A stretch of 64,000 bases of DNA. It comes from a virus. The stretch lies in the IMG/VR virus record IMGVR_UViG_3300028837_000933, positions 1-64,000 of that record. One strand, written 5' to 3'. Both the position numbers and the translations under genes were made by a program. A model generated the notes under the pieces. That model was not told the origin of the DNA. It did no database searches and saw only the letters and a list, made by a program, of their open reading frames with translations. Below, piece after piece: positions 7,148 through 61,688 of the stretch (its first letter is position 1; every line of letters begins with the position of its first letter).

Positions 7148-7399
7148 ATGAAAAGCGGTGAAACGTTCATGGTAAGCGAGGAGTGCGACCAGGCTCTCCA
7201 GGCCACGATCAGCAATCTGGAAGGCGCCTACTCGGCGTTCGAGGTGGCGTCCAAACGAATCGCCCACGAGCGGAAGAACCTATTCAGGATCATCCGCGAG
7301 AACCATCCGGAGCTGGAGGGACACGAGTTCAGCACCGACAGGAAGGATGGAAAGATCGAGGTCACGGTCATGTGGCACGATGACGGGCCAGGATCATGA
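7148..7399 (+). CDS. hypothetical protein
   Basis: AAGGAG RBS; ATGA overlap with next gene. Confidence 0.55.
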   Translation: MKSGETFMVSEECDQALQATISNLEGAYSAFEVASKRIAHERKNLFRIIRENHPELEGHEFSTDRKDGKIEVTVMWHDDGPGS

Positions 7400-8781
7400 G
7401 AGTAGGAGTACACGGCAGAAATGCCACAAACTACGAGGAAGCCGACTTTGAACTCATAGAGCGAGCCAAGATAGACCAGATGGTCGTGATGAGCTTCACT
7501 GAGCCGGCGAACCTCCAGCGTATCCGCACGATCCGCCCGGACTTGGAGTTTCTCATCCGGCTCTATACGGGCGGCTTTGGGCCGGGACATCATCCCGGCG
7601 CTATGCGCTTCTGCTCTGAAGTCATCCCGCAAGTCGCTAGGCTCCAGCCCTTTGCCAAGCGCTTCCAAATCCACAACGAGCCCAACCATGCCCACGGCAC
7701 GGAAGGATGGGACGCAAGCAACGCCTCTGCCAAGGACTTTGCCGCCTGGTACGACACGGCGTTCACAATCTTGAAGTCAGAGTTCCCGCATCTCCAGTTC
7801 GGCTTCCCTGGCTTGGCTGTCCCTGGTTTCGTTCACCGCGACTACCAATGGCTGGATATTTGCGCTAGGCAGATCCAAATGAGCGACTTCCTAGGCGCAC
7901 ACGCGTACTGGCAGGGCGTGGACCAGGAAAATATGTGGTCTGATCAGTGGGGTCTGCGATTCAAGAACTATCACAAGCGATTCCCCAACAAGCGCATCGA
8001 ACTGACCGAGGTCGGCAACAGCACGGAGGGCATCGATCCCGAGGTCGTGGCCTACGAGTATCCCAACTACTACTCCGCCCTTATGCACTATCCGTACCTT
8101 GGCGGCGTCTCGCCGTTCATCGCATCCAGTCCCGATCCTCAGTGGGGAGACTTCACATGGCGCTACGAGAATGGCAACATGAAGCCCGTAGTAGAAGCCG
8201 TGGGCTGGCTTCCCAGGATTTTCCCGCCAACGATACCGGAAATCATCAACGTCCGCAACCAGCTACCAGTCAATCGCAAGGCCAAGCCATACGGCCGGCG
8301 TTCTCTGAACCAGCTCCGGTGGATCGTCTTTCACCACAGCGATGCCCCACCGAGCCATCCTGTAGAGCGCGTTGCCTGGTATCACACACGCGTCCGCAAG
8401 TACCGCCGAATCGCTTACCACTTCTACGTTGGCCTAGACTACGTGGATGGCGTGCCGGTAGTCACAATCTACCAAACCAACCGCGTGCGCACGCGGTCCT
8501 GGCACACGGGCGGGGATGCCAACACGTTCGGTATCGGCGTTTGTATCGCAGGCTCGTTTATGAACGGACGCATCCCACACGAACTACAGATCCAAATGGC
8601 CGAAGCCCTATGCGACTATCTGTACTACAAGTTCCCATCGCTCACCATCGACTGCGTCAAACGCCACAAAGACTTCAGGCAGACCGCTTGCCCAGGCAAG
8701 ACTTCAGATCCGCCCGATTCCTGGTACTTCCAGATGGTTGACAGACTCAAGCTCAAATGGAGTAGACACCCAAATGGCTAG
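7396..8781 (+). CDS. putative endolysin: glycoside-hydrolase-like TIM barrel plus Amidase_2 domain
   Basis: HNEPN acid/base and ELTEVG nucleophile-like motifs; amidase IVFHHS, IAYHFYV, WHTG, H...TACPG. Confidence 0.85.
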   Translation: MRVGVHGRNATNYEEADFELIERAKIDQMVVMSFTEPANLQRIRTIRPDLEFLIRLYTGGFGPGHHPGAMRFCSEVIPQVARLQPFAKRFQIHNEPNHAHGTEGWDASNASAKDFAAWYDTAFTILKSEFPHLQFGFPGLAVPGFVHRDYQWLDICARQIQMSDFLGAHAYWQGVDQENMWSDQWGLRFKNYHKRFPNKRIELTEVGNSTEGIDPEVVAYEYPNYYSALMHYPYLGGVSPFIASSPDPQWGDFTWRYENGNMKPVVEAVGWLPRIFPPTIPEIINVRNQLPVNRKAKPYGRRSLNQLRWIVFHHSDAPPSHPVERVAWYHTRVRKYRRIAYHFYVGLDYVDGVPVVTIYQTNRVRTRSWHTGGDANTFGIGVCIAGSFMNGRIPHELQIQMAEALCDYLYYKFPSLTIDCVKRHKDFRQTACPGKTSDPPDSWYFQMVDRLKLKWSRHPNG

Positions 8782-47393: not shown

Positions 47394-48077
47394 TTAGTAG
47401 AGGCCCTCCAACTCCCACGCTTCAAAGCTGTGGCCGAAGGCTCCTCCGTAACTCGTATCGCTGGTCATGTCCGCCTTGTACCTTTTTGTAAGGTGCTCGA
47501 TCTGTTCTCTCACCACCTTCACTGGGTCAGTGGTGTTCTCGCTGACTCCTTGAATGGTGTGCTTGGTGGCATCGGATGCCATCTGATTGGCGATGATGGT
47601 CAAGGCATACGCCTGGGCCATCTGTGAGAAGATTTCCTCATCAGCATCGGTGAGATTCGCATACACCAGATTGCTGTCAACAGTCGTTAGGACGTGAACA
47701 GACAGATACCTCACTTCCCGTTCACTCCAATCATACACCGGTTCCGGCTGGATGACAAGCGTCTGACCCTGGACCTCGAACCTCTCAGTCCAAGTATCGC
47801 CTATCGGGATTAGGCCCGTCTCGGTGACAAGAACCGTCCGACCCTCAACGAAGAACTCTTGCACCGTAAGCAACTTGAAAAAGTCGCTCGGCATGGCATA
47901 CTCCGCTGTGCCACTCACCACATCGATGGTCGTGGTCTTGAGCATCGGTCGGTCACGGCCATACTTGGCCACTGACCGTTTCACGCACAGTTCGTATTGT
48001 CCCTCATTCGGAACGCGCCCACGCTTCGGCACATCCAGCTTGAGCTGTGCAATCAGCGTTGCAAAATCTAGGCCCAT
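47394..48077 (-). CDS. head-tail adaptor-like protein
   Basis: VSGTAEYAMPSDF...L.I.P.P motif. Confidence 0.65.
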   Translation of the reverse strand: MGLDFATLIAQLKLDVPKRGRVPNEGQYELCVKRSVAKYGRDRPMLKTTTIDVVSGTAEYAMPSDFFKLLTVQEFFVEGRTVLVTETGLIPIGDTWTERFEVQGQTLVIQPEPVYDWSEREVRYLSVHVLTTVDSNLVYANLTDADEEIFSQMAQAYALTIIANQMASDATKHTIQGVSENTTDPVKVVREQIEHLTKRYKADMTSDTSYGGAFGHSFEAWELEGLY

Positions 48078-52315: not shown

Positions 52316-53605
52316 TCAGTCAGCCACCTTTACTGCCGCGTAGTAAAACGGAGCGCTCGATGTAGCGGTAGTGATATAGCAGTTCAAGGTAAATCCATCC
52401 TCATCCATCGACTTGAATGAAAACGCTTGCTGTGAAACACCTGCTGGCGACATTATCTGGAAACATCTGTTAGTATGAGCGATCCTGGAACCAACCGATG
52501 GTCCTATGCCATTACTCCCGGCAGCATTAGTAGCGAATTGATTACCATTCGCATCCATGAATCCGAGGCCCATCTGCCCTTGACCGTTCCAGTGTATATC
52601 ACGAGCACCGTAATGACCTCCGAAGATCACAAAGTCCGGTTGGAATCCGACACCAGTTACTTGCCATGTACTTGGGAAACCACCGCCGGTGGACCAAACG
52701 GCTCCCTTGATATTCGCTGGTCCGCCGTCAAGACAGAGCGCATGATAACCGTAGGCGTAACCAGGGCTTATTGTCTCATTGATGGTAAATCCATCACTGT
52801 CAAGCGTATTGCAGTTGATAAGTGCTCTCGTACCAGGAGCTGGAGTAGGACTGGCCATACACGCAAATGACCATGTGGAATTGCGGCTGTTCCCTCTCGG
52901 ACCCCACGGACTAACCTGGTGATTGTTGCACTCTGAAACAGACCAATGGCCACCGCTACCGGCCTCAAAACCGACTGAAGCGTACATCGTTGTTCGTGTA
53001 CCAGTGGTAGAATTGTAGATGCCACCACCTAGGTTGAGCAGGATGTTTTCTGGCTGGAATCCAACACCCGTGATCCCAAGGGTGCCTACACTCCCGCGGG
53101 ATAGATACTGTTTTATGAATCTCTCTGCTATATCCGAGCTTCTAAACGCTAGGTAGCCAAAGTATTCGTTGTTGCCACTTATAGTGTCCCAAGTGATAGT
53201 GAAACCATTATTATCGAAGGACTTGATCTTGCCGCGGCTACGGTTTGTACCATCCCAGTAGAATGTGTAGAAGCAATAAGTAGCAGTTAGGCCAGCTCGC
53301 GAGTCCGCCGCTCCTATTGCAGCACCATGCTCAAAGGACCATGACTGCCCAGATTGATAGATTGTCTCACTCGTACTACGACAAGCCATGCCTATTGAGT
53401 TGACATGGTGATTCACAGCAGAGCCAAGTGTAGACACGGCGCTACCAATACACAGGATAACCTGCGGTTTGAATCCAAGAGTTGATATGGCCTGGTCGCC
53501 AGTCGAGGACGGTTCCTGGAAGCTACCGACCTCAACCTGCCCGCCGCCAGCAGCTTCTTCCTCGGCGTACAGTAGTGCCCGTCTAGGACCTGTCAGTAGT
53601 GGCAT
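52316..53605 (-). CDS. fibre/adhesin-like protein with three GF.P repeats
   Basis: 3x (I/V)..(L/V)GF.P...DGFT-like units; visibly AT-richer; N-terminus MPLLTGPRRALL. Confidence 0.65.
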   Translation of the reverse strand: MPLLTGPRRALLYAEEEAAGGGQVEVGSFQEPSSTGDQAISTLGFKPQVILCIGSAVSTLGSAVNHHVNSIGMACRSTSETIYQSGQSWSFEHGAAIGAADSRAGLTATYCFYTFYWDGTNRSRGKIKSFDNNGFTITWDTISGNNEYFGYLAFRSSDIAERFIKQYLSRGSVGTLGITGVGFQPENILLNLGGGIYNSTTGTRTTMYASVGFEAGSGGHWSVSECNNHQVSPWGPRGNSRNSTWSFACMASPTPAPGTRALINCNTLDSDGFTINETISPGYAYGYHALCLDGGPANIKGAVWSTGGGFPSTWQVTGVGFQPDFVIFGGHYGARDIHWNGQGQMGLGFMDANGNQFATNAAGSNGIGPSVGSRIAHTNRCFQIMSPAGVSQQAFSFKSMDEDGFTLNCYITTATSSAPFYYAAVKVAD

Positions 53606-53640
53606 CGTTCCTTCGCGTTTCACTCTTCATGTCGCTTTGC

Positions 53641-54975
53641 TCAACCGTGAATCAAGTGCATGGCCAACTCTGGGCCGTAGTTTCCATTGGTCAGCATGTT
53701 CATCTGCGAACCAGCGCTCTGGTACGTCCACGCCTCTATGTACTGGCCCGCTGTCATTTCGTACTGTGTGGCGAGCGCACCATACCCGTAGCCGGCAGGC
53801 GTTGTGTCGAGTTGTGAGATGACAGTAGAGCCCCCGAGCCTTATCTGGTATCGCCGGAGCCCGGTCAGCACATAGGCCCAGTGACCGGAAAAAGTGATGA
53901 TGTACGTGCCATCATAAGGCGCATACATGCGACTGTTGTTGGTGGCTGTATCATGGAAGGGAGCGGCAGCCCAATCCCATCTCTCGCTGTTGAGTTCGAC
54001 AGGTTCCCAAGAATTATGCTGTACGGCCTGCTGTGCATTGTGGTACGCCCTGCATCCAACATTCCCCAGCTTCTCCATCATAAAGGCTGGAGTAGCATAA
54101 CCTATGGACATGACTAGAGGATTGCCGGGGCCAGATGTCTCCATGTTCATCAGTTCCACATAGTCGCCAACACCCAGATAGTAGATCGTGGGCACAGAGA
54201 ATGTGGTGGCATCCCAATAGGCGGCCGGCTGATGGTGTACGGCCAGGAAGGTAGTACCATTCAGCCGAACCCCCAAGTAACGAGATGACCAATAATCGTT
54301 TTGAAACTCCGCATTCCCTATGACTAGGTAGAAGCCTGCCGTTTGCGCTGTCAACCTTGAATTGTTGGTTACTGGATCATGGATACCATCGGTGTCCCAT
54401 TCAGAGACATTGAGGGCAGTCGGTCCCCACACCCCCGCCCCAGCTGCCTGGTTACTTCCGTGCCACGCACCTGCACCGATGCCCCCCACGAGTTTCACGG
54501 CCGCAAACTCAGGCCCCTGCTGAGCCGTAGACTCGAGATCGATGTTCGTTGTAGCGTTCTGGAACACCTGATAATAGGCGTACTCATCTTGGGTGAAGGG
54601 ATAGATACGACTGAACTGCTGGCGTGAACAGTGTGATCCCCCCCTGGTTCGTAGCCTCGCAATCAGGGTAGGGTCGCCAGTTTGGATGTGCGAGTACCTA
54701 GTGTTGCTACTAACTTCCTCCCAGTCGTTGTTAGCCCAAAGGAAGTACCGACCAGTTTCGGGCATGGTCAGTCGGTGATTGTTCGTCACCAGATCGTGCA
54801 TGTTGTACGGATCTGTGCCACGCTCACTGTTGAGTGCAACGGTTGTCATCGTGTTTTTCACGATTTCAACAGTAGTGTCGTGATAGGCGCGGACATGCGG
54901 CACGGGAGGAAAAGCATAGTCCTCTTCCTCGCCGGGATCCAGCAATGCCCGCCTAGGCCCTGTGCGCAATGGCAC
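53641..54975 (-). CDS. fibre/adhesin-like protein with three C1q/TNF-like domains
   Basis: 3x A.H...LN...HD..TNN.R...G.Y; N-terminus MPLRTGPRRALL. Confidence 0.7.
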   Translation of the reverse strand: MPLRTGPRRALLDPGEEEDYAFPPVPHVRAYHDTTVEIVKNTMTTVALNSERGTDPYNMHDLVTNNHRLTMPETGRYFLWANNDWEEVSSNTRYSHIQTGDPTLIARLRTRGGSHCSRQQFSRIYPFTQDEYAYYQVFQNATTNIDLESTAQQGPEFAAVKLVGGIGAGAWHGSNQAAGAGVWGPTALNVSEWDTDGIHDPVTNNSRLTAQTAGFYLVIGNAEFQNDYWSSRYLGVRLNGTTFLAVHHQPAAYWDATTFSVPTIYYLGVGDYVELMNMETSGPGNPLVMSIGYATPAFMMEKLGNVGCRAYHNAQQAVQHNSWEPVELNSERWDWAAAPFHDTATNNSRMYAPYDGTYIITFSGHWAYVLTGLRRYQIRLGGSTVISQLDTTPAGYGYGALATQYEMTAGQYIEAWTYQSAGSQMNMLTNGNYGPELAMHLIHG

Positions 54976-56105: not shown

Positions 56106-56423
56106 CTAGCCGCCACCGGTTGTTGCGGCCACGAAGATAGCGGGGAGCACGCTCCCCAAAAACTGCAAAATGTCTGGTGCAAGAGCGGCCAGCTTGTCCG
56201 TCAGCTTTTCGGCCTCTTCTTCTCTGTTGTGCTGAATGGCCATGCAAAGCTCCTCGAGCACCCGTGTCTGCGCTGGCGTCTTGGCCATCTTCTTGGCAGT
56301 GCTCCAGGCATCCGCGTACTGTGGCATCGGATATTCCGCCCGGCCTCTGATGTTCAGATCCCGCCCTACAATGTTCCCAGACAAGTCTCCCCCGACATCC
56401 AGTGAATCGATTGTAACGCCCAT
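56106..56423 (-). CDS. small protein: N-terminal DVGGDLSGNIVGRD motif plus helical domain
   Basis: AGGAGG RBS; motif at 56358-56399; LAALAPDILQ helix. Confidence 0.8.
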   Translation of the reverse strand: MGVTIDSLDVGGDLSGNIVGRDLNIRGRAEYPMPQYADAWSTAKKMAKTPAQTRVLEELCMAIQHNREEEAEKLTDKLAALAPDILQFLGSVLPAIFVAATTGGG

Positions 56424-56447
56424 CTTGGCCCCCTCCTGTGTTTTGTG

Positions 56448-56807
56448 TTACTCGGTTACGTCTCTCCCGGCTATGTTTCCGGACAGGTCGCCCTCTACGT
56501 CCATATCGGCCACGTGGGTTCCGCCCACGCTGACTGAGATGTCGCGTGCCTGTGATGCTAGGCTGCTCATCTGCTTCTTGTCGTCATCCGCCAGCGCCGC
56601 TAGGTACTGGGCGATAATCGTCAGTGCCGCCTCGAGCCGCTCGGTGATGGTACATTGTCTGAGTTGTAGTTCAAGTACTTGGTCGAGCATCTCGCGCAAG
56701 ATCCGAAAATCCGCACGGCGTTCGGTCTCCAATTGCACCTTTCGTTCCGTGGCTTGGAGGAGGTCTCTCAGGTCCTGAAACTGGTCCGTGTCTTGGTGCT
56801 CTGTCAT
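56448..56807 (-). CDS. coiled-coil protein with C-terminal DVEGDLSGNIAGRD motif
   Basis: GGAGG RBS before ATG 56807; motif at 56460-56501. Confidence 0.8.
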   Translation of the reverse strand: MTEHQDTDQFQDLRDLLQATERKVQLETERRADFRILREMLDQVLELQLRQCTITERLEAALTIIAQYLAALADDDKKQMSSLASQARDISVSVGGTHVADMDVEGDLSGNIAGRDVTE

Positions 56808-57465
56808 TGGCCTCCACGATCCTTTCGTAGCCATGGGCAACGCCGTTGATTGCCTCCATTCTTACCCTGTTTGCTTCAATGAGCTTTTCAACCATCTGGT
56901 GCATACAAACGTCAGTTAGGTACATCGCCACGGCTACGAAGTAGTAGGTAAGAATCGTGTACAGCAACTGCGCTCCTCCCAAGAACCACTCGGCCAGAAA
57001 GATCAGCACCGTCTGAAACGCCAGTACAGGCAAGATAGCCTTGGGGGGTAGCACTGCGCCAGCCACAATCAACGCGACCATAAAGTAGATCAGATACCTG
57101 CCCGAACTCACAGCCTCCGCATCGTGAAGTACCATTATTGACATGGCCAGTAACGTGGCGAGGAAAATCACCGCGCTAGTAGGATACCGCAGACCACTCA
57201 CCAAAAGGCACACCAACACGATTAGTTGCAGCGCCCCCGCAGCCAGCAAAAGCCTCGCCTCCTGCCACGTCTCAGCGCCACTCCCAAAGCGCACCACGGT
57301 CACGATGAGAATGCCCACCGAGAAGACAACTGACCAATGAACGAGCACTCGCAGGAGCGCGAGTTGGCGACTGGCGTGCGTGCTCACTTCCAAACAGGGC
57401 GGCCCTGAAGGAAGGAACCAATTGCGCAACTTACTCCGGACTAAAACATACTCAGGAGGCATCAT
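56671..57465 (-). CDS. multi-pass membrane protein (about 6 TM)
   Basis: Consecutive hydrophobic segments; 3' tail overlaps the next gene by about 137 nt. Confidence 0.7.
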   Translation of the reverse strand: MMPPEYVLVRSKLRNWFLPSGPPCLEVSTHASRQLALLRVLVHWSVVFSVGILIVTVVRFGSGAETWQEARLLLAAGALQLIVLVCLLVSGLRYPTSAVIFLATLLAMSIMVLHDAEAVSSGRYLIYFMVALIVAGAVLPPKAILPVLAFQTVLIFLAEWFLGGAQLLYTILTYYFVAVAMYLTDVCMHQMVEKLIEANRVRMEAINGVAHGYERIVEANDRAPRHGPVSGPERPPPSHGTKGAIGDRTPCGFSDLARDARPST

Positions 57466-57469
57466 TCCC

Positions 57470-57742
57470 CTACCTCTCTTTACAGTCCACCAAGAACGAG
57501 CGATCGTCTCCACCGCCGCCCGTGAAGGTTACGCGATTGGTCACTCGGTACACCTGCCCAGCTGTCCCACCGCTGATCCAAATCGCGGTCGCCGTATCGC
57601 TGTAGGTCGATGACTCCTCATTCAGACCGGAAGGCATTATCCAGGTGCTTCCACTGAGCGTGTCGCTACCCAGCCAGGTCTCCCAATTGAAACCATAGGG
57701 CAGTTCCGCATCCGGGTCTTTTGGAACAATCGGCAGGGCCAT
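57470..57742 (-). CDS. fibre adaptor-like protein (Gp77-like)
   Basis: KDPDA.L.Y.F.W..WL..DT...STW...W.SGGTAG..Y.VTN.V....DDRSF. Confidence 0.75.
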   Translation of the reverse strand: MALPIVPKDPDAELPYGFNWETWLGSDTLSGSTWIMPSGLNEESSTYSDTATAIWISGGTAGQVYRVTNRVTFTGGGGDDRSFLVDCKER

Positions 57743-57746
57743 GGGT

Positions 57747-60731
57747 CTACCTCACTTCAAACACACGGATCTCAGCCGGCACATCGAAGACGCGAAGTTC
57801 AGCCGGCACAAGGAAATAATCGGCCACGTTCATCAATAAGAGCGGAACAGTATCAGGCGTCACGCTCGCGGCGTGTATCAGGGCTGCAAAGTTTGCCTCC
57901 CCCACGGTGAGAACCACGTCATCGGGCGTGCTCGAGACAGCGCTCAGCACTGCGGCTAGGTTCGTTGCTAGGTCCAGATTAGCTGTCGGCGTGGTCGACT
58001 GAGCGGCAATGATAGCCGCCATGCGGAAGATGATCCCCAGCATGGCAGTATCGGGAGTGATGGACCCCGTGGCTATCGCTGCGACATAGGCTCTAGTAAC
58101 CGCCAGCACTACCGTATCGGGCGTGCTGCTGTCAACACCAACCGCCGCGGCTATCGGCAGCACCAGCCCCAGGATCGCATCGGGCGTTGTCGAAACCGCA
58201 TCCAAGGACGCCGTCATCGCCATGACGGCGGTCATGTCTACTGTGTCGGGCGTAGTCGATGCAGCCTCCAGCGATGCGACCATCTCCCGGCTAACTGCCA
58301 ATGGCACCGTGTCGGGCGTTGTGGTCGCGCTATCCAGAGCCGCCGCGAATGACTTGATGATGTCCAGCGAAATGTTGTCGGGCGTGGTGGATGCGGCCAA
58401 AATCAGCGCATCATCGAAACTCGGTTGTCGGTCGAGCGATGCAGTATCAGGCGTTGTTGAGACTGCGTCCAGGGAAGCCGTCATCTTCATGACGGCAGTC
58501 ATGTCTACGGTGTCGGGCGTGGTGGAAACCGCGGCAATGGTGGCCGCGAAAAGAATATCAGCCTCCACGTCCAGTTCCACGGTGTCGGGCGTGGTGGAAG
58601 CCGTATCGATGGCAGCGGAGTACTTCCTGGACACAGCCAGTTCAAACGTGTCGGGTGTGGTTGACACCGCATCCAGGGACGCGACCATCTCCCGGCTAAC
58701 TGCCAATGGCACCGTGTCCGGCGTGGTCGTGGCCGTGTCGATGGACGCAACCAAGCTCGGTTGTCGGTCGAGCGCAACGGTATCCGGTGTGGTCGATGCG
58801 GCTACCGCTGATGCGGCCAGTTCGCAGAACACATCCAGGACTACGCTGTCCGGTGTCGTGCTGGCGGTGTCGATGGTAGCCGCGTACTCGCGAGTGACGG
58901 CCAGCGGCACCGTGTCGGGCGTGGTTGATACAGCCGCCAGGATCGCATCCAGTTCGCAGAACACATCCAGGACTACAACGTCCGGTGTGGTGCTCGCGGC
59001 AGCGGCCAGGGCCGCGAAGGTCTTTATGATCGTCAGCTCGACCGTGTCGGGCGTGGTGGAAGCCGTATCGATGGAAGCCGCGAGCTTCCTGGACACAGTC
59101 AGTTCAAACGCATCGGGTGTGGTGGATGCGGCCAAAATCAGTGCATCATCGAAACTCGGTTGTCTGTCGAGAGAGACCGTGTCCGGCGTGGTCGTGGCCG
59201 TATCGATGGCGGCCGCGAGTTTCCTTGTAATTGCCAAGGTAACGGCATCGGGAGTGGTGGAAACGGACGCCAGGATCGCATCCATCTCCACGAACACGTC
59301 CAGTTCCACGGTGTCGGGTGTCGTGCTGGCGGTGTCGATGGTAGCCGCGTACTCGCGAGTGACGGCCAGCGGCACCGTATCGGGTGTGGTTGAAACGGCC
59401 GCCAGCGTGGCATCCAGTTCGCAGAACACGTCCAGGACTACAACGTCTGGGGTTGTAGTCGCGGCAGCGGCGAGGGCTGCGAAGGTCTTTATGATCGTCA
59501 GTTCGGCGGTGTCGGGTGTTGTGGATGCGGCCAAAATCACCGCGTCATCGAAACTCGGTTGCCGATCGAGCGATGCGGTATCAGGCGTTGTTGAGACTGC
59601 GTCTAATGAAGCCGCAAACTCAATGGTGGCCGTGAGACCAACGTTATCGGGTGTGGTTGACGCTGCATCCAGTGTAGCGGCCAGTTCGATCACGGCGGTC
59701 AGGGCTACGGTGTCGGGCGTAGTCGATGCAGCCTCCAACGATGCGACCATCTCCCGGCTAACTGCCAATGGCACCGTGTCGGGTGTAGTCGCAGCCGCAT
59801 CGATGGCAGCCACGAACTCCCTAGTGACCGCCAGGGGCACGGTGTCGGGCGTGGTCGAAGCTGCGGTGATGACAGCCACGTACTCGCGCTGCACCGCCAG
59901 GGCTACGGTGGTAGGCGTAGTCGAAACAGCTGCACAGACCGCTGAGAAGTTGACATCCTGCCCAACATCCTCGTACAGCGCAGTGATCGCGCCTACCCAC
60001 TCAGAAGAAGAGGAGATCGTACCCGTGACCGTGTCGCCTGTTAGGGCCGTGGCCAGTCGGTACTCCAGCTGAACGGCCACGTTGGATTCGCCGGCGCCTG
60101 CTGTGCCCGACCCGATCGGTGTCCCTAGGTTGGTGTAATCGGCATCTGCGGAGACCGTGACGTTCGTCTTGTTCTGGATGCCCGTCACGTGCAGCATCAA
60201 GTAGTCGCGCTCGGTTAGACTGCTGATGGTCGTGCTTACACTGGTTCCGCTACCATTGGAGCCAGTATCAGCCTCTTCGGTAACGCTTCCAGCCGTGGAG
60301 AACTCCCAGACGCCGATCGCCCGTGCGTAGCAGCTGTGGTGCGTACCCGTGACGGTATCGCTGGCCGCGGTGGTCAGCGCGGTTGTCAGTTCGCTCATCC
60401 AGAGGCTGACGGTCACGCCATCGTTGGCAGAGCCAGATGACCGCGTCCACTCTACGAGTTTTGTGTAGGCGTTGGACTGGTCATCCTGGACCTGCGTGTG
60501 ATCCGTACTGGCACCGCTGGTGGTTGTGTTGTTGTCGGTGACGAGAACAACGATCGCAAGGTCTCCGACCGCTATGTCTGCTGTTACATCGACAGCAGAA
60601 GTAGTGCCGGTGGACCTAAATCCTGCGCCTCCTCGTTCTCCTTGGTAAGCAAATGCCATTTTCTTCGGTTTCTTGGGCTTCTTCGGTTTTTTAGGCTTTT
60701 TCTCCTCGGTGCGACCGAGTGGCGCCCACAT
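57747..60731 (-). CDS. long fibre protein with about 32 tandem 22-aa STTPD repeats (alternative start 60659)
   Basis: N-terminal beta domain, then A.IDAASTTPDTV.L-type repeats. Confidence 0.8.
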   Translation of the reverse strand: MWAPLGRTEEKKPKKPKKPKKPKKMAFAYQGERGGAGFRSTGTTSAVDVTADIAVGDLAIVVLVTDNNTTTSGASTDHTQVQDDQSNAYTKLVEWTRSSGSANDGVTVSLWMSELTTALTTAASDTVTGTHHSCYARAIGVWEFSTAGSVTEEADTGSNGSGTSVSTTISSLTERDYLMLHVTGIQNKTNVTVSADADYTNLGTPIGSGTAGAGESNVAVQLEYRLATALTGDTVTGTISSSSEWVGAITALYEDVGQDVNFSAVCAAVSTTPTTVALAVQREYVAVITAASTTPDTVPLAVTREFVAAIDAAATTPDTVPLAVSREMVASLEAASTTPDTVALTAVIELAATLDAASTTPDNVGLTATIEFAASLDAVSTTPDTASLDRQPSFDDAVILAASTTPDTAELTIIKTFAALAAAATTTPDVVVLDVFCELDATLAAVSTTPDTVPLAVTREYAATIDTASTTPDTVELDVFVEMDAILASVSTTPDAVTLAITRKLAAAIDTATTTPDTVSLDRQPSFDDALILAASTTPDAFELTVSRKLAASIDTASTTPDTVELTIIKTFAALAAAASTTPDVVVLDVFCELDAILAAVSTTPDTVPLAVTREYAATIDTASTTPDSVVLDVFCELAASAVAASTTPDTVALDRQPSLVASIDTATTTPDTVPLAVSREMVASLDAVSTTPDTFELAVSRKYSAAIDTASTTPDTVELDVEADILFAATIAAVSTTPDTVDMTAVMKMTASLDAVSTTPDTASLDRQPSFDDALILAASTTPDNISLDIIKSFAAALDSATTTPDTVPLAVSREMVASLEAASTTPDTVDMTAVMAMTASLDAVSTTPDAILGLVLPIAAAVGVDSSTPDTVVLAVTRAYVAAIATGSITPDTAMLGIIFRMAAIIAAQSTTPTANLDLATNLAAVLSAVSSTPDDVVLTVGEANFAALIHAASVTPDTVPLLLMNVADYFLVPAELRVFDVPAEIRVFEVR

Positions 60732-60869: not shown

Positions 60870-61688
60870 CTAGGACATGGTGATGTCGAGATCCCCCGCG
60901 GGGAACTTTGCAGTGTCCCCGTTGTCAACGGCCTGATCGGTCATGCCGTTGTCATAGAAAAGGAGATCCCCGGCCGTCACGGCCGAACAGATGGCCACGG
61001 CTATGATGGTTCCCCAGTTGGCGGTGGCGGTGGTGAAGGTGATGTCATCGTTGTTGTCCACCAATCCAGCAGCGGCATTGTTCCAATCCGGTGCGGCTCC
61101 GCCATTCGGAGTCACTTGCTCCCTGGCGTACGAGCCACCACTGGGCTCGGTGATCGTGGAACCCGTCATACCGTCCGTGACCGGGTTCGTGATGATCAAG
61201 GCCACGTAGGTGTCGGGCGCCGCGTACGCCTGGTTGCGGAACATCAGATCCAGAAGGTCGATGCACAGGCTGTCGGAGATTTCGCCGGCGCTGAAGGTGA
61301 CATCGATCTCGCCGGAGGCGATGGATGGCGTGTTCCCGCTGACGATCGACTTGCCGGACGCGAACTGTCCGTGGGCGAGCATGTTTCCAGTCCCATGCGC
61401 ACTGGCGTCCACAATCGCCCAGTGGGTAACGGTTCCCCAGGAGCCCGTGGCCTCGGGGAACGTCACCGCGCCCGTCTGGTCCACGGCACGGCTGGCCGCA
61501 GCGGCAAACGTAATGGCGGTTCGGGCGTAGGAGCCCGAGTCGGCGCACTCGCTCATCGAGGCGCCCGTACCCGCATCCGTTGGGTCTGCGGTACAGAGCG
61601 CCACATACACTGTGGCAACGGGGCTGTACGCCGCGTTGCACACATGGTCGAGCAACTCAAGTTCTGCGTAGTCTGAAAGGCTTCCCAT
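60870..61688 (-). CDS. fibre-associated structural protein with two Gp80-like domains
   Basis: 2x LLD...YVAL...E...SYAR...TF..AT..WGT...G....G..D(V/I)T. Confidence 0.8.
   Translation of the reverse strand: MGSLSDYAELELLDHVCNAAYSPVATVYVALCTADPTDAGTGASMSECADSGSYARTAITFAAAASRAVDQTGAVTFPEATGSWGTVTHWAIVDASAHGTGNMLAHGQFASGKSIVSGNTPSIASGEIDVTFSAGEISDSLCIDLLDLMFRNQAYAAPDTYVALIITNPVTDGMTGSTITEPSGGSYAREQVTPNGGAAPDWNNAAAGLVDNNDDITFTTATANWGTIIAVAICSAVTAGDLLFYDNGMTDQAVDNGDTAKFPAGDLDITMS

Follow-up and report, generated by a model that had tools for sequence, protein, structure and literature searches.

Matched terminal tags on two adjacent late gene products of an uncultured phage, possibly the halves of a two-part protein

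Two neighboring phage genes, here called 'up' and 'down', encode small proteins that carry closely matching tags at their facing ends, and judging from their codons and from their relatives the match is kept at the protein level. The shared tag most likely brings both proteins into one complex. The best explanation, which we hold with somewhat less than even confidence, is that 'up' and 'down' form a two-part phage protein whose halves would be joined by this tag as a strand-forming assembly element.

The stretch of DNA that was analyzed (the window, 64,000 nt) originates from an uncultured marine-sediment phage. The features of the locus are listed in Table 1.

Table 1. Position, strand and description of the gene pair, its tags and the adjoining membrane gene (positions are those of the window)
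Feature	Positions	Strand	Description
Membrane neighbor	56671..57465	minus	264 aa, about six spans by hydropathy, upstream of 'up'
'up', upstream gene	56448..56807	minus	119 aa, helical body and C-terminal tag; stop TAA at 56448-56450
Tag copy 1 (GTHVADMDVEGDLSGNIAGRDVT)	56454..56522	minus	23 residues ending one short of the 'up' C-terminus
Spacer	56424..56447	minus	24 nt between the genes; AGGAGG at 56432-56437, 8 nt before the ATG
'down', downstream gene	56106..56423	minus	105 aa, N-terminal tag and helical bundle with hydrophobic end
Tag copy 2 (GVTIDSLDVGGDLSGNIVGRDLN)	56352..56420	minus	residues 2-24 of 'down'

Protein 'up' (minus strand; ATG at 56807, stop TAA at 56448-56450) ends in ...GTHVADMDVEGDLSGNIAGRDVTE, and 'down' (minus strand; ATG at 56423) starts with MGVTIDSLDVGGDLSGNIVGRDLN... 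In the tag core, 12 out of 14 residues are identical, differing codons are used at nine of these 12, and the DNA is identical at 29 of 42 positions (38 of 69 over the 23-residue block). These figures, which confirm the matched motif and codon pattern described in the first-pass annotation, indicate that both copies are translated and under purifying selection, and they leave recent DNA copying as no explanation of the match. That annotation had likewise placed the match at the protein level, with which both the codon divergence and the conservation in relatives agree. Its remark was that the rest of the two proteins looks unrelated. In a whole-protein BLASTP comparison, the alignment comprises the tag block alone (13 of 23 residues identical, E = 4e-7 for this single comparison).

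As a chance control, the last 40 aa of one ORF were aligned locally (BLOSUM62) with the first 40 aa of the next one in a crude ORF set without 'up' and 'down', whose own score was computed separately. The facing ends of 'up' and 'down' score 69, compared to a mean of 17.8 (sd 4.0) and a maximum of 34 for 115 same-strand neighbor pairs in the whole genome of 121,820 bp. The control set totals 116 pairs, and its sole outlier (56) stems from spurious ORFs in a region of repeats (75.8-76.6 kb). A six-frame scan of the whole genome places loose forms of the motif at the two tag sites only. Two other samples of the same study provided contigs that are identical to the window over 56242-56491, a range spanning the stop and both tag copies, as well as over 56653-56878, in each case at a depth of about 2, and no variants were found in the sequence from other samples aligned to the locus (depth of about 2). 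Across ten segments of the family, the tag consists of 23% G, 20% V+I, 15.6% D, 2.8% N+Q, 1.6% K and 2% L, with no P, and the tag in 'up' is strongly acidic with a net charge of -5 over 26 residues.

The two genes share one frame, and the sequence from one to the next reads TAA, 10 nt, AGGAGG, 8 nt, ATG; the tag copies are 102 nt (exactly 34 codons) apart. Gene 'down' has a strong Shine-Dalgarno sequence (SD) and ATG of its own, and GC and GC3 of both genes resemble those of their neighbors. The shared frame, the 24-nt gap, the strong SD and the neighbor-like GC and GC3 together make 'up' and 'down' look co-expressed and long resident. The start of 'up' is backed by relatives of 114-116 aa (P0004, P0008, P0010, P0007, and P0009) aligning from the same N-terminus, and that of 'down' by relative P0003, which begins with MGVHIGS. 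In the public annotation of the contig, both genes are called shorter, at 80 aa and 73 aa, and the call of 73 aa removes the tag from the 'down' product.

In both proteins, the tag is predicted to be a disordered extension of a helical body. The AF2 model of 'up' (from an eight-sequence alignment) contains helices at residues 3-49, 56-73 and 77-95, with residues 93-119 at a pLDDT below 50. For 'down', residues 1-32 are disordered in the model and followed by helices at 34-46, 50-64, 68-81, 83-92 and 94-101 (mean pLDDT 66); within residues 78-103 the 19-residue Kyte-Doolittle hydropathy peaks at 1.69. Disordered tags on folded helical bodies are what one would expect if the segment acquires its fold only upon binding. 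Neither protein has a match to a family past any cut-off in Pfam, PADLOC or NCBIfam, in agreement with the earlier statement that there is no NLR at the locus. Foldseek gave no match at E <= 0.001 in the pdb and viral libraries, with a 'down' model of pLDDT only 66, and the best VIA wide match (Z 8.6, for the model with pLDDT 66) is below what the tool itself gives as noise for helical bundles. Sequence searches of the PDB with both family alignments returned coiled-coil-type noise only.

The tag family is very rare. Searches of 1.84 and 5.8 billion proteins resulted in eight relatives in total, metagenomic without exception: six upstream-type proteins with a terminal tag, one downstream-type protein starting with the tag (P0003) and one one-piece protein (P0005). 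A related Gly/Asp/Ile-Val segment occupies the tag position in all six upstream-type relatives and in P0005, and in six out of six upstream-type relatives the tag is 0-5 residues away from the C-terminus. The end position of the tag appears, from these six proteins and P0003, to be a family trait. P0003 is 99 aa long, is 47% identical to 'down' and shares the start MGV. P0005 (194 aa) has an upstream-type body (HMMER E-value 2.4e-13), a single internal tag and a helical tail. Its tag is followed by IRG..LPLP and then a 65-aa tail with a hydrophobic LPT-type stretch at the end, an order of parts that seems to match 'up' followed by 'down'. Hhalign aligned the tag and IRG..P.P of P0005 with 'down' (E = 0.022); the tail of P0005 and the body of 'down' are not significantly similar, the observed score being reached by 649 of 2000 and 557 of 2000 shuffles.

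The bodies are 28-50% identical between orthologues. Locally, the tag of 'up' scores 69 against 'down' and 23-49 against the seven other upstream-type or one-piece proteins, and the tag of 'down' scores 54 against its orthologue P0003, below the within-genome value of 69. Tags that are closer within the genome than between orthologues fit selection for the tags to match, on the evidence of one genome's pair. A single downstream-type protein stands against six upstream-type proteins and P0005, and most upstream-type proteins may thus work without such a partner, or the partners may be too divergent or mis-called. Word-based homologue searches with 'up' and 'down' each alone found nothing but the shorter gene calls of the locus itself. 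No related loci were found in viral contigs ('down', alignment A3, and the 217-aa and 131-aa neighbors as queries) or in metagenome contigs (alignment A3 and P0003), and a tblastn search of 50,697 GenBank phage records was likewise empty at E <= 1 for 'up', 'down', P0005 and the membrane protein. Two further candidates were dropped: P0006 (7,476 aa, repetitive; weak HMMER E-value of 3.4e-4), which on reading is a compositional or helical match, and the Atlas lead TCAD2 (score 0.89), as the genome has no PF19971 match even at E <= 10.

The pair is located in a late virion-gene operon among GP4-type fiber genes, with gp80-like and gp77-like fiber genes beside it, and adjoins a six-span membrane gene, the only ORF of the genome with more than three spans. 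The last 137 nt of the membrane ORF overlap 'up' in a different frame. No Pfam, PHROG, PADLOC or NCBIfam match was found for the membrane protein, and the Atlas leads (MASE/6TM_PilS-type sensor membrane modules, scores 0.85-0.88) are leads only; whether the protein is part of the 'up'/'down' module is uncertain. In the frame of the membrane ORF, the GC3 signal stops at around 56850, where that of the 'up' frame climbs, and because of this change of frame a frameshift fusion of the membrane ORF with 'up' was considered. As a family trait such a fusion is ruled out by the relatives, which are free-standing, 114-116 aa long and have their own starts; the overlap sequence, identical in a contig of another sample, also opposes it. 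Elsewhere in the genome, an Amidase_2 domain is located at 8308-8700, 48 kb away, with no membrane ORF adjoining, five other lysin families have no match, and a three-span ORF of 143 aa (102079-102510) is a further holin candidate. This survey bears neither for nor against a role of 'up', 'down' and the membrane protein in lysis. No tRNA was found.

According to the assembly-tag explanation, the first piece would be a three-helix body followed by a flexible tag of 23 residues in which Gly, Asp and Ile/Val abound, and the second piece would start with the same tag, followed by a small helical bundle with a hydrophobic end. Selection would keep the tag nearly identical in both pieces, with the result that both enter the same complex. 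As the most likely route, the tags would pair directly with each other, forming the short beta-strands of a finite sheet or zipper, comparable to split phage proteins that complement each other by strand addition. Given the late operon among GP4-type fiber genes and the six-span membrane neighbor, the complex would act late in infection, either on the virion or fiber assembly line or at the membrane. Against this explanation, the one-piece P0005 keeps a tag that would be needless for joining alone, and the tag must therefore do more, for example self-association or docking. In addition, the strong acidity of the 'up' tag (net -5) disfavors a simple stacking of like on like.

A precedent for split late proteins in a phage of a related kind is podophage A1002, whose nozzle consists of two proteins that rebuild one fold via added beta-strands (PMC13730344). 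Like 'up' and 'down', nozzle-rope gp39 and nozzle-base gp42 are late phage proteins; they are single elsewhere and split in A1002, as may also be the case for 'up' and 'down' in view of P0005, and they are rejoined by added strands. The chain-like fibers of A1002 and GP4, in which docking is by strand addition, also have the same kind of genomic setting (gp80-like fiber, gp77-like adaptor). The A1002 halves have complementary segments, whereas 'up' and 'down' share a duplicated segment, and no structural or sequence relation was found between the A1002 proteins and 'up' or 'down'.

It is rather unlikely, in our judgment, that the tag is instead a common docking or targeting tag by which each protein docks on the same third component with no mutual binding. 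This component could be a fiber or adaptor protein or the interior of an HK97-type capsid, and both encapsulin targeting peptides and the N-terminal tags of exchangeable receptor-binding proteins would serve as models. In encapsulins, short targeting peptides sit in disordered ends of the cargo (PMC8346489), C-terminal on the main cargo, and the ferredoxin cargo of the same encapsulin operon has an N-terminal ‘TVGSL’ motif; such peptides dock in a pocket on the inside of the HK97-fold shell, and cargo is found inside particles. The phage pair has the same C-end/N-end signature, i.e., a short conserved peptide in the predicted-disordered termini of two proteins of one operon, and as for the encapsulin peptides it lies beside an HK97-type shell gene cluster. 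The tag differs in being longer (about 23 aa) and acidic and in being carried by small helical proteins. The N-ends MGVTIDSL and MGVHIGSI loosely resemble TVGSL, a likeness of five residues only that is too short to count. On the fiber side, short peptide stretches add a strand to fiber dimers in GP4/A1002-type fibers (PMC13730344), and the gp80-like and gp77-like fiber genes of the phage lie beside the pair. The one-piece P0005 with its single tag is exactly what the docking reading predicts. Against it, the analysis turned up neither a partner nor a binding pocket, small helical proteins with a six-span membrane neighbor are atypical of virion parts, and the strong divergence of the tag between relatives would require the docking site to co-diverge.

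The first-pass annotation had read the locus as an amyloid-signaling architecture, with lysis timing or the exclusion of other phages as possible uses. On such a reading, one tag would act as a cross-beta template for the other and switch on a helical, membrane-directed body. The layout, the conservation in relatives and the predicted-disordered tag on a helical body stood up; the reading as prion-like signaling did not fare as well, and we regard it as improbable. Matched C-end and N-end motifs on adjacent genes are known from bacterial amyloid signaling (Dyrka et al. bioRxiv 10.1101/2020.01.06.895854), as are Bab and Agp as a matched-motif amyloid pair (bioRxiv 10.1101/2024.11.07.622273). 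As in the BASS1-10 Bell/NLR pairs and the BASS11 pair Bab/Agp (E. coli ECOR25), a small helical protein here bears the motif at its C-end and the adjacent gene product at its N-end, the genes are collinear and few bases apart (24-nt gap, motif of about 23 residues), and the motif lies outside folded domains, is Gly-rich and has alternating hydrophobic residues (Ile/Val), with no Pro and nearly no Lys. The hydrophobic end, the tighter match of the tags within the genome than between orthologues and the membrane protein encoded directly upstream would also fit. The fungal HET-S/NWD2 pair (HRAM motifs) shares the matched motif on neighbor genes and a small protein with a membrane-directed part; in contrast, the phage pair lacks a STAND NTPase, and neither of its proteins has a two-fold pseudorepeat.

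Several features argue against amyloid signaling. Neither an NLR/STAND, TPR-PIN or other sensor nor a Bell/BB, HeLo, TIR or CHAT domain was recognized in the family and fold searches, and both proteins have a size of only about 110 aa. BASS motifs are about 25 aa long, with Q, N, G, V and I overrepresented and few K, P and L (bioRxiv 10.1101/2020.01.06.895854); in G, V+I, P, K and L the phage tag fits this composition, but with 15.6% Asp, 2.8% Asn+Gln and a net charge of up to -5 it does not, and identical acidic residues would stack on one another. Compared to the BASS pairs, the order is reversed, the N-terminally tagged protein being the one with the hydrophobic end. The genes belong to the late virion-gene operon of a lytic-type phage rather than to a defense island. 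The one-piece P0005 keeps the tag, while in the described ‘all-in-one’ NLR forms the effector is fused directly to the sensor (bioRxiv 10.1101/2020.01.06.895854). A single chain that retains one tag is more in keeping with a role in structure or assembly than with a relay from one protein to another.

Nor was the tag found on host-type proteins in the sequences searched. The pattern G-D-h-x-G-N-[IVM]-x-G-[RS]-D was scanned against DNA, yielding seven stretches in viral contigs, none convincingly terminal, of which two (L003 and L007) are one tail-fiber-like protein with G[DN]Vx tetrapeptide repeats. Genome contigs gave at least 120 stretches, which are chance or antisense matches in all cases inspected. 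Among the 120 genome-contig matches listed, 43 are one recurring sequence, with an ORF of 790-874 aa on the opposite strand at five out of five loci checked; the opposite-strand frame, read at three loci, resembles what we take to be the PLP site of glycogen phosphorylase. Seven more genome-contig matches were inspected, six of which look off-frame or antisense and one a chance internal match. A second pattern, from the conserved L-A-x-Q-A-K-E-I...GG stretch of the tag family, produced a single chance match. The suggested link to signaling proteins of Chloroflexota (the phylum of an Anaerolineae MAG) was not upheld: in 401 genomes of this phylum no convincing match to the tag was found, the four genomes with a match at a per-genome E <= 0.05 being below chance expectation and all four matches internal and unconvincing. 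With no convincing tag-bearing protein among the genome-contig matches inspected and these 401 genomes, the idea of a decoy of host amyloid immunity finds, within the sequences searched, no host motif that a decoy could mimic.

Doubtful, too, is a phage-run self-templating switch, in which the six-span sensor-like protein would trigger the coiled-coil protein late in infection and the tag would template 'down', sending its hydrophobic end into the membrane. If true, the switch would set the lysis time or close the cell to other phages, and it would be the first amyloid relay run by a bacterial virus for its own program and not for host immunity.

The least probable account is a relic or read-through, i.e., a gene broken by a recent 102-nt tandem duplication and a stop, or a TAA that is read through, with a second copy that has no role; both ORFs do share one frame with copies exactly 34 codons apart, and a one-piece relative (P0005) exists, but synonymous sites between the copies are near-saturated (9 of 12) while the protein sequence is kept, so that the duplication must be old and both copies constrained, the split layout recurs in diverged relatives (six ending at the tag, one starting with it), 'down' has its own strong SD and ATG, the TAA is also present in contigs from another sample, and neither the TAA stop nor the ORFs of 994-1720 aa, which table 11 translates normally, hint at stop recoding.

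Since the family is very rare, with eight relatives, the general impact of the tagged pair hinges on whether its principle recurs. Matched motifs at facing ends are now used in genome mining as a signature of amyloid immune signaling. Here, the same signature is found in a phage late virion operon on two tiny proteins without a sensor or known effector, one relative of which is a single chain. If the tag templates, phages would own such switches. If it is a mere assembly or docking tag, the signature alone would not be specific for amyloid signaling.

We found that the minus-strand protein 'up' (119 aa) ends with ...GTHVADMDVEGDLSGNIAGRDVTE, while the next protein 'down' (105 aa) starts with MGVTIDSLDVGGDLSGNIVGRDLN. 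These facing ends carry two copies of a Gly/Asp-rich tag of about 23 residues. A recount of its 14-residue core returned exactly the values of the first-pass annotation: 12 of 14 residues are identical and nine of these 12 use different codons. At the DNA level, 29 of 42 bases are identical. The remainder of both proteins had been described as unrelated in appearance; BLASTP aligned only the tag block (E-value 4e-7). The end-to-start score of the pair is 69, versus a mean of 17.8 (sd 4.0, maximum 34) for the 115 other neighbor pairs of the genome; one pair scoring 56, an artifact of repeated DNA, lies outside these statistics. The tag motif occurs nowhere else in the whole genome. Its core can be read as three G-[DNR]-h-x tetrapeptides, a period also present in a tail-fiber-like protein from the pattern scan (a lead only). 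Both genes share one frame and the tag copies are 34 codons apart, with a TAA stop and then a strong AGGAGG-ATG start between them. The stop, both tag copies and the region overlapping a membrane ORF (the latter in the second-sample contig) are identical in contigs from two other samples.

In homolog searches, 'up' alone and 'down' alone were orphan-like. A HMMER search of 1.84 billion representatives with a profile of both proteins superposed at the tag (A1) gave seven proteins at E ≤ 0.001: the two gene calls of the phage itself, the metagenome proteins P0003, P0004, P0005, and P0007, and a 7,476-aa protein, a weak match that was discounted as a relative. A word search with a six-sequence alignment (A2) listed eight proteins, P0008-P0011 being newly gained. 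All relatives are single-member metagenome clusters on contigs of 2-50 kb. Six are of the upstream type (114-116 aa, except P0011, whose call is shorter) and share a helical body; the five full-length ones are 28-50% identical to 'up', and all six have a related Gly/Asp/Ile-Val segment 0-5 residues from the C-terminal end. P0003 (99 aa) shares 47% identity with 'down'; its first residues are likewise Met-Gly-Val, and the tag segment comes next in a Gly/Ser/Ile-Val version. Judged by sequence comparison, these relatives settle the starts of both 'up' and 'down'; the public gene calls (80 and 73 aa) are therefore too short, the 73-aa call omitting the tag of 'down'. The tag pair is confirmed and extends to a small family.

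The two tags score 69 against each other, whereas either scores 21-54 against other tag-bearing family members, whose bodies are 28-50% identical. Synonymous change between the copies is near-saturated, and the match is thus kept at the protein level and is no recent DNA duplication, as initially proposed. As far as a single pair can indicate, both observations together point to selection that has long kept the two tags similar. A homotypic contact between the tags, or one docking site used by both, would require such selection.

Features of the tag pair, its surroundings, and the lysin domain
Feature	Position	Strand	Remarks
Amidase_2 domain	8308-8700	+	E 1.9e-17; within ORF 7396-8781 (461 aa), early/middle genes
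SU10-type adaptor	47394-48077	-	recognizable virion gene
435-aa protein	52316-53623	-	adjoins 444-aa protein
444-aa protein	53641-54975	-	N-terminus reads MPLRTGPRRALL
'down'	56106-56423	-	N-terminal tag
'up'	56448-56807	-	C-terminal tag
Membrane ORF	56671-57465	-	about six spans; sole ORF with >3 spans in genome
Gp77 fiber-tail adaptor	57470-57742	-	PF23148, E 1.2e-23
994-aa protein	57747-60731	-	between gp80-like and gp77-like genes
Gp80 'fiber I' protein	60870-61688	-	PF23140, E 1.6e-65

The virus contig is linear (121,820 bp, GC 0.586, CheckV completeness 87), with the window as its first 64 kb. The region is present in Logan contigs of three samples from one marine-sediment study; it may derive from two sequencing runs of one sample. 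No close relatives were found among 50,697 GenBank phages or in IMG/VR. Three recognizable virion genes (Gp80, Gp77, SU10-type adaptor) lie in the minus-strand late operon around the pair and place the virion with those of GP4/SU10-type podophages. Two stretches of the gp80-like protein (272 aa) match the Gp80 model (128 positions); the protein resembles two 140-aa GP4 monomers in tandem, possibly a covalent 'dimer.' The 994-aa protein contains 30 [ST]TP[DT]-centered units spaced by 21-24 residues and may serve as the 'rope' of a chain-like fiber as in the podophages GP4 and A1002; its docking units would far outnumber the five and 11 fiber dimers, respectively, described for these phages (PMC13730344). 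Beyond the window (genome ~75600-76600), repeated DNA yields long, repetitive, spurious minus-strand ORFs with TVSHGFSRF-like units.

In the best-supported reading, which we hold tentatively, 'up' and 'down' are halves of a two-part protein; the shared end tag, putatively strand-forming, would hold both in one complex. For 'up', AF2 predicted three helices, with disorder from residue 93 onward (pLDDT 60), and for 'down' a five-helix bundle preceded by 32 disordered N-terminal residues (pLDDT 66); fold and sequence searches gave no meaningful match. The A1002 nozzle is split into two complementing proteins (PMC13730344). In P0005 (194 aa), an upstream-type body is followed by a single internal tag segment, then by IRG..LPLP, and finally by a tail of 65 residues whose end is hydrophobic. 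Because similarity of this tail to 'down' is not significant, P0005 serves only as a hint of a one-piece form; if it is one, its retention of the tag means that joining two halves is not the tag's only task. A serious rival, possible if somewhat improbable, is a common docking or targeting tag. Encapsulin cargo likewise bears the same short peptide at the C- or N-terminal end within one operon (PMC8346489), and in GP4/A1002-type fibers assembly proceeds through strands added to short stretches of peptide (PMC13730344).

A possible membrane or lysis-type role for the pair is kept alive by the six-span ORF next to it, which may act with the pair. The final 137 nt of this ORF (56671-56807, minus strand) overlap 'up' in a different frame; the GC3 signal of its own frame is lost from ~56850, and the overlapping tail is Arg/Pro/Gly-rich. 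Its look-alikes in the Atlas, MASE/PilS-type sensor membrane modules with scores <0.9, are leads only. Amidase_2 is the sole recognizable cell-wall hydrolase domain among six lysin families searched and lies 48 kb from the pair, with no membrane ORF (holin candidate) beside its ORF. A 143-aa ORF beyond the window (genome 102079-102510, minus strand) has three hydrophobic spans and is a possible holin.

We give low odds to an amyloid-type relay through the tag. Of the amyloid-signaling architecture first proposed, the layout stood, agreeing with the pairs described by Dyrka et al. and Ibarlosa et al., but Pfam, PADLOC, and NCBIfam searches recognized in neither protein any domain that defines such systems, and the genes are located in a virion operon. 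The tag is also acidic and without the Asn/Gln enrichment reported for BASS motifs (Dyrka et al., bioRxiv 10.1101/2020.01.06.895854): the ten family tags comprise 23% G, 16% D, 10% each of V, I, and A, 9% R, and 2.8% N+Q, contain no P, and have net charges of -5 to +1. No tag was seen on cellular proteins in the 401 genomes or the inspected genome-contig matches. The suggested Chloroflexota link gained no support: in the phylum to which an Anaerolineae MAG belongs, only four of 401 genomes gave a match at a per-genome E ≤ 0.05 (about 20 expected by chance), none of the four at a protein end. A DNA-pattern scan of genome contigs gave at least 120 matches, and all those inspected were chance or antisense. 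The degenerate pattern G-D-L-L-G-N-[IV]-x-G-R-D, a trap for such scans, matched repeatedly, e.g., at loci L017, L030, and L054, where the longest frame, which runs on the opposite strand, contains ...EQIS.AG.EASGT.NMK..., presumably the glycogen phosphorylase PLP site; L081 and L125 likewise have their long ORF on the opposite strand.

A broken-gene relic or read-through is unlikely because the tag copies are old and constrained, the split layout recurs, and stops are in ordinary use. The probability left by these four readings was assigned to no named one. We regard the pair as a new variation on the 'matched terminal motifs' already known, rather than as a demonstrated member of the amyloid-signaling systems.
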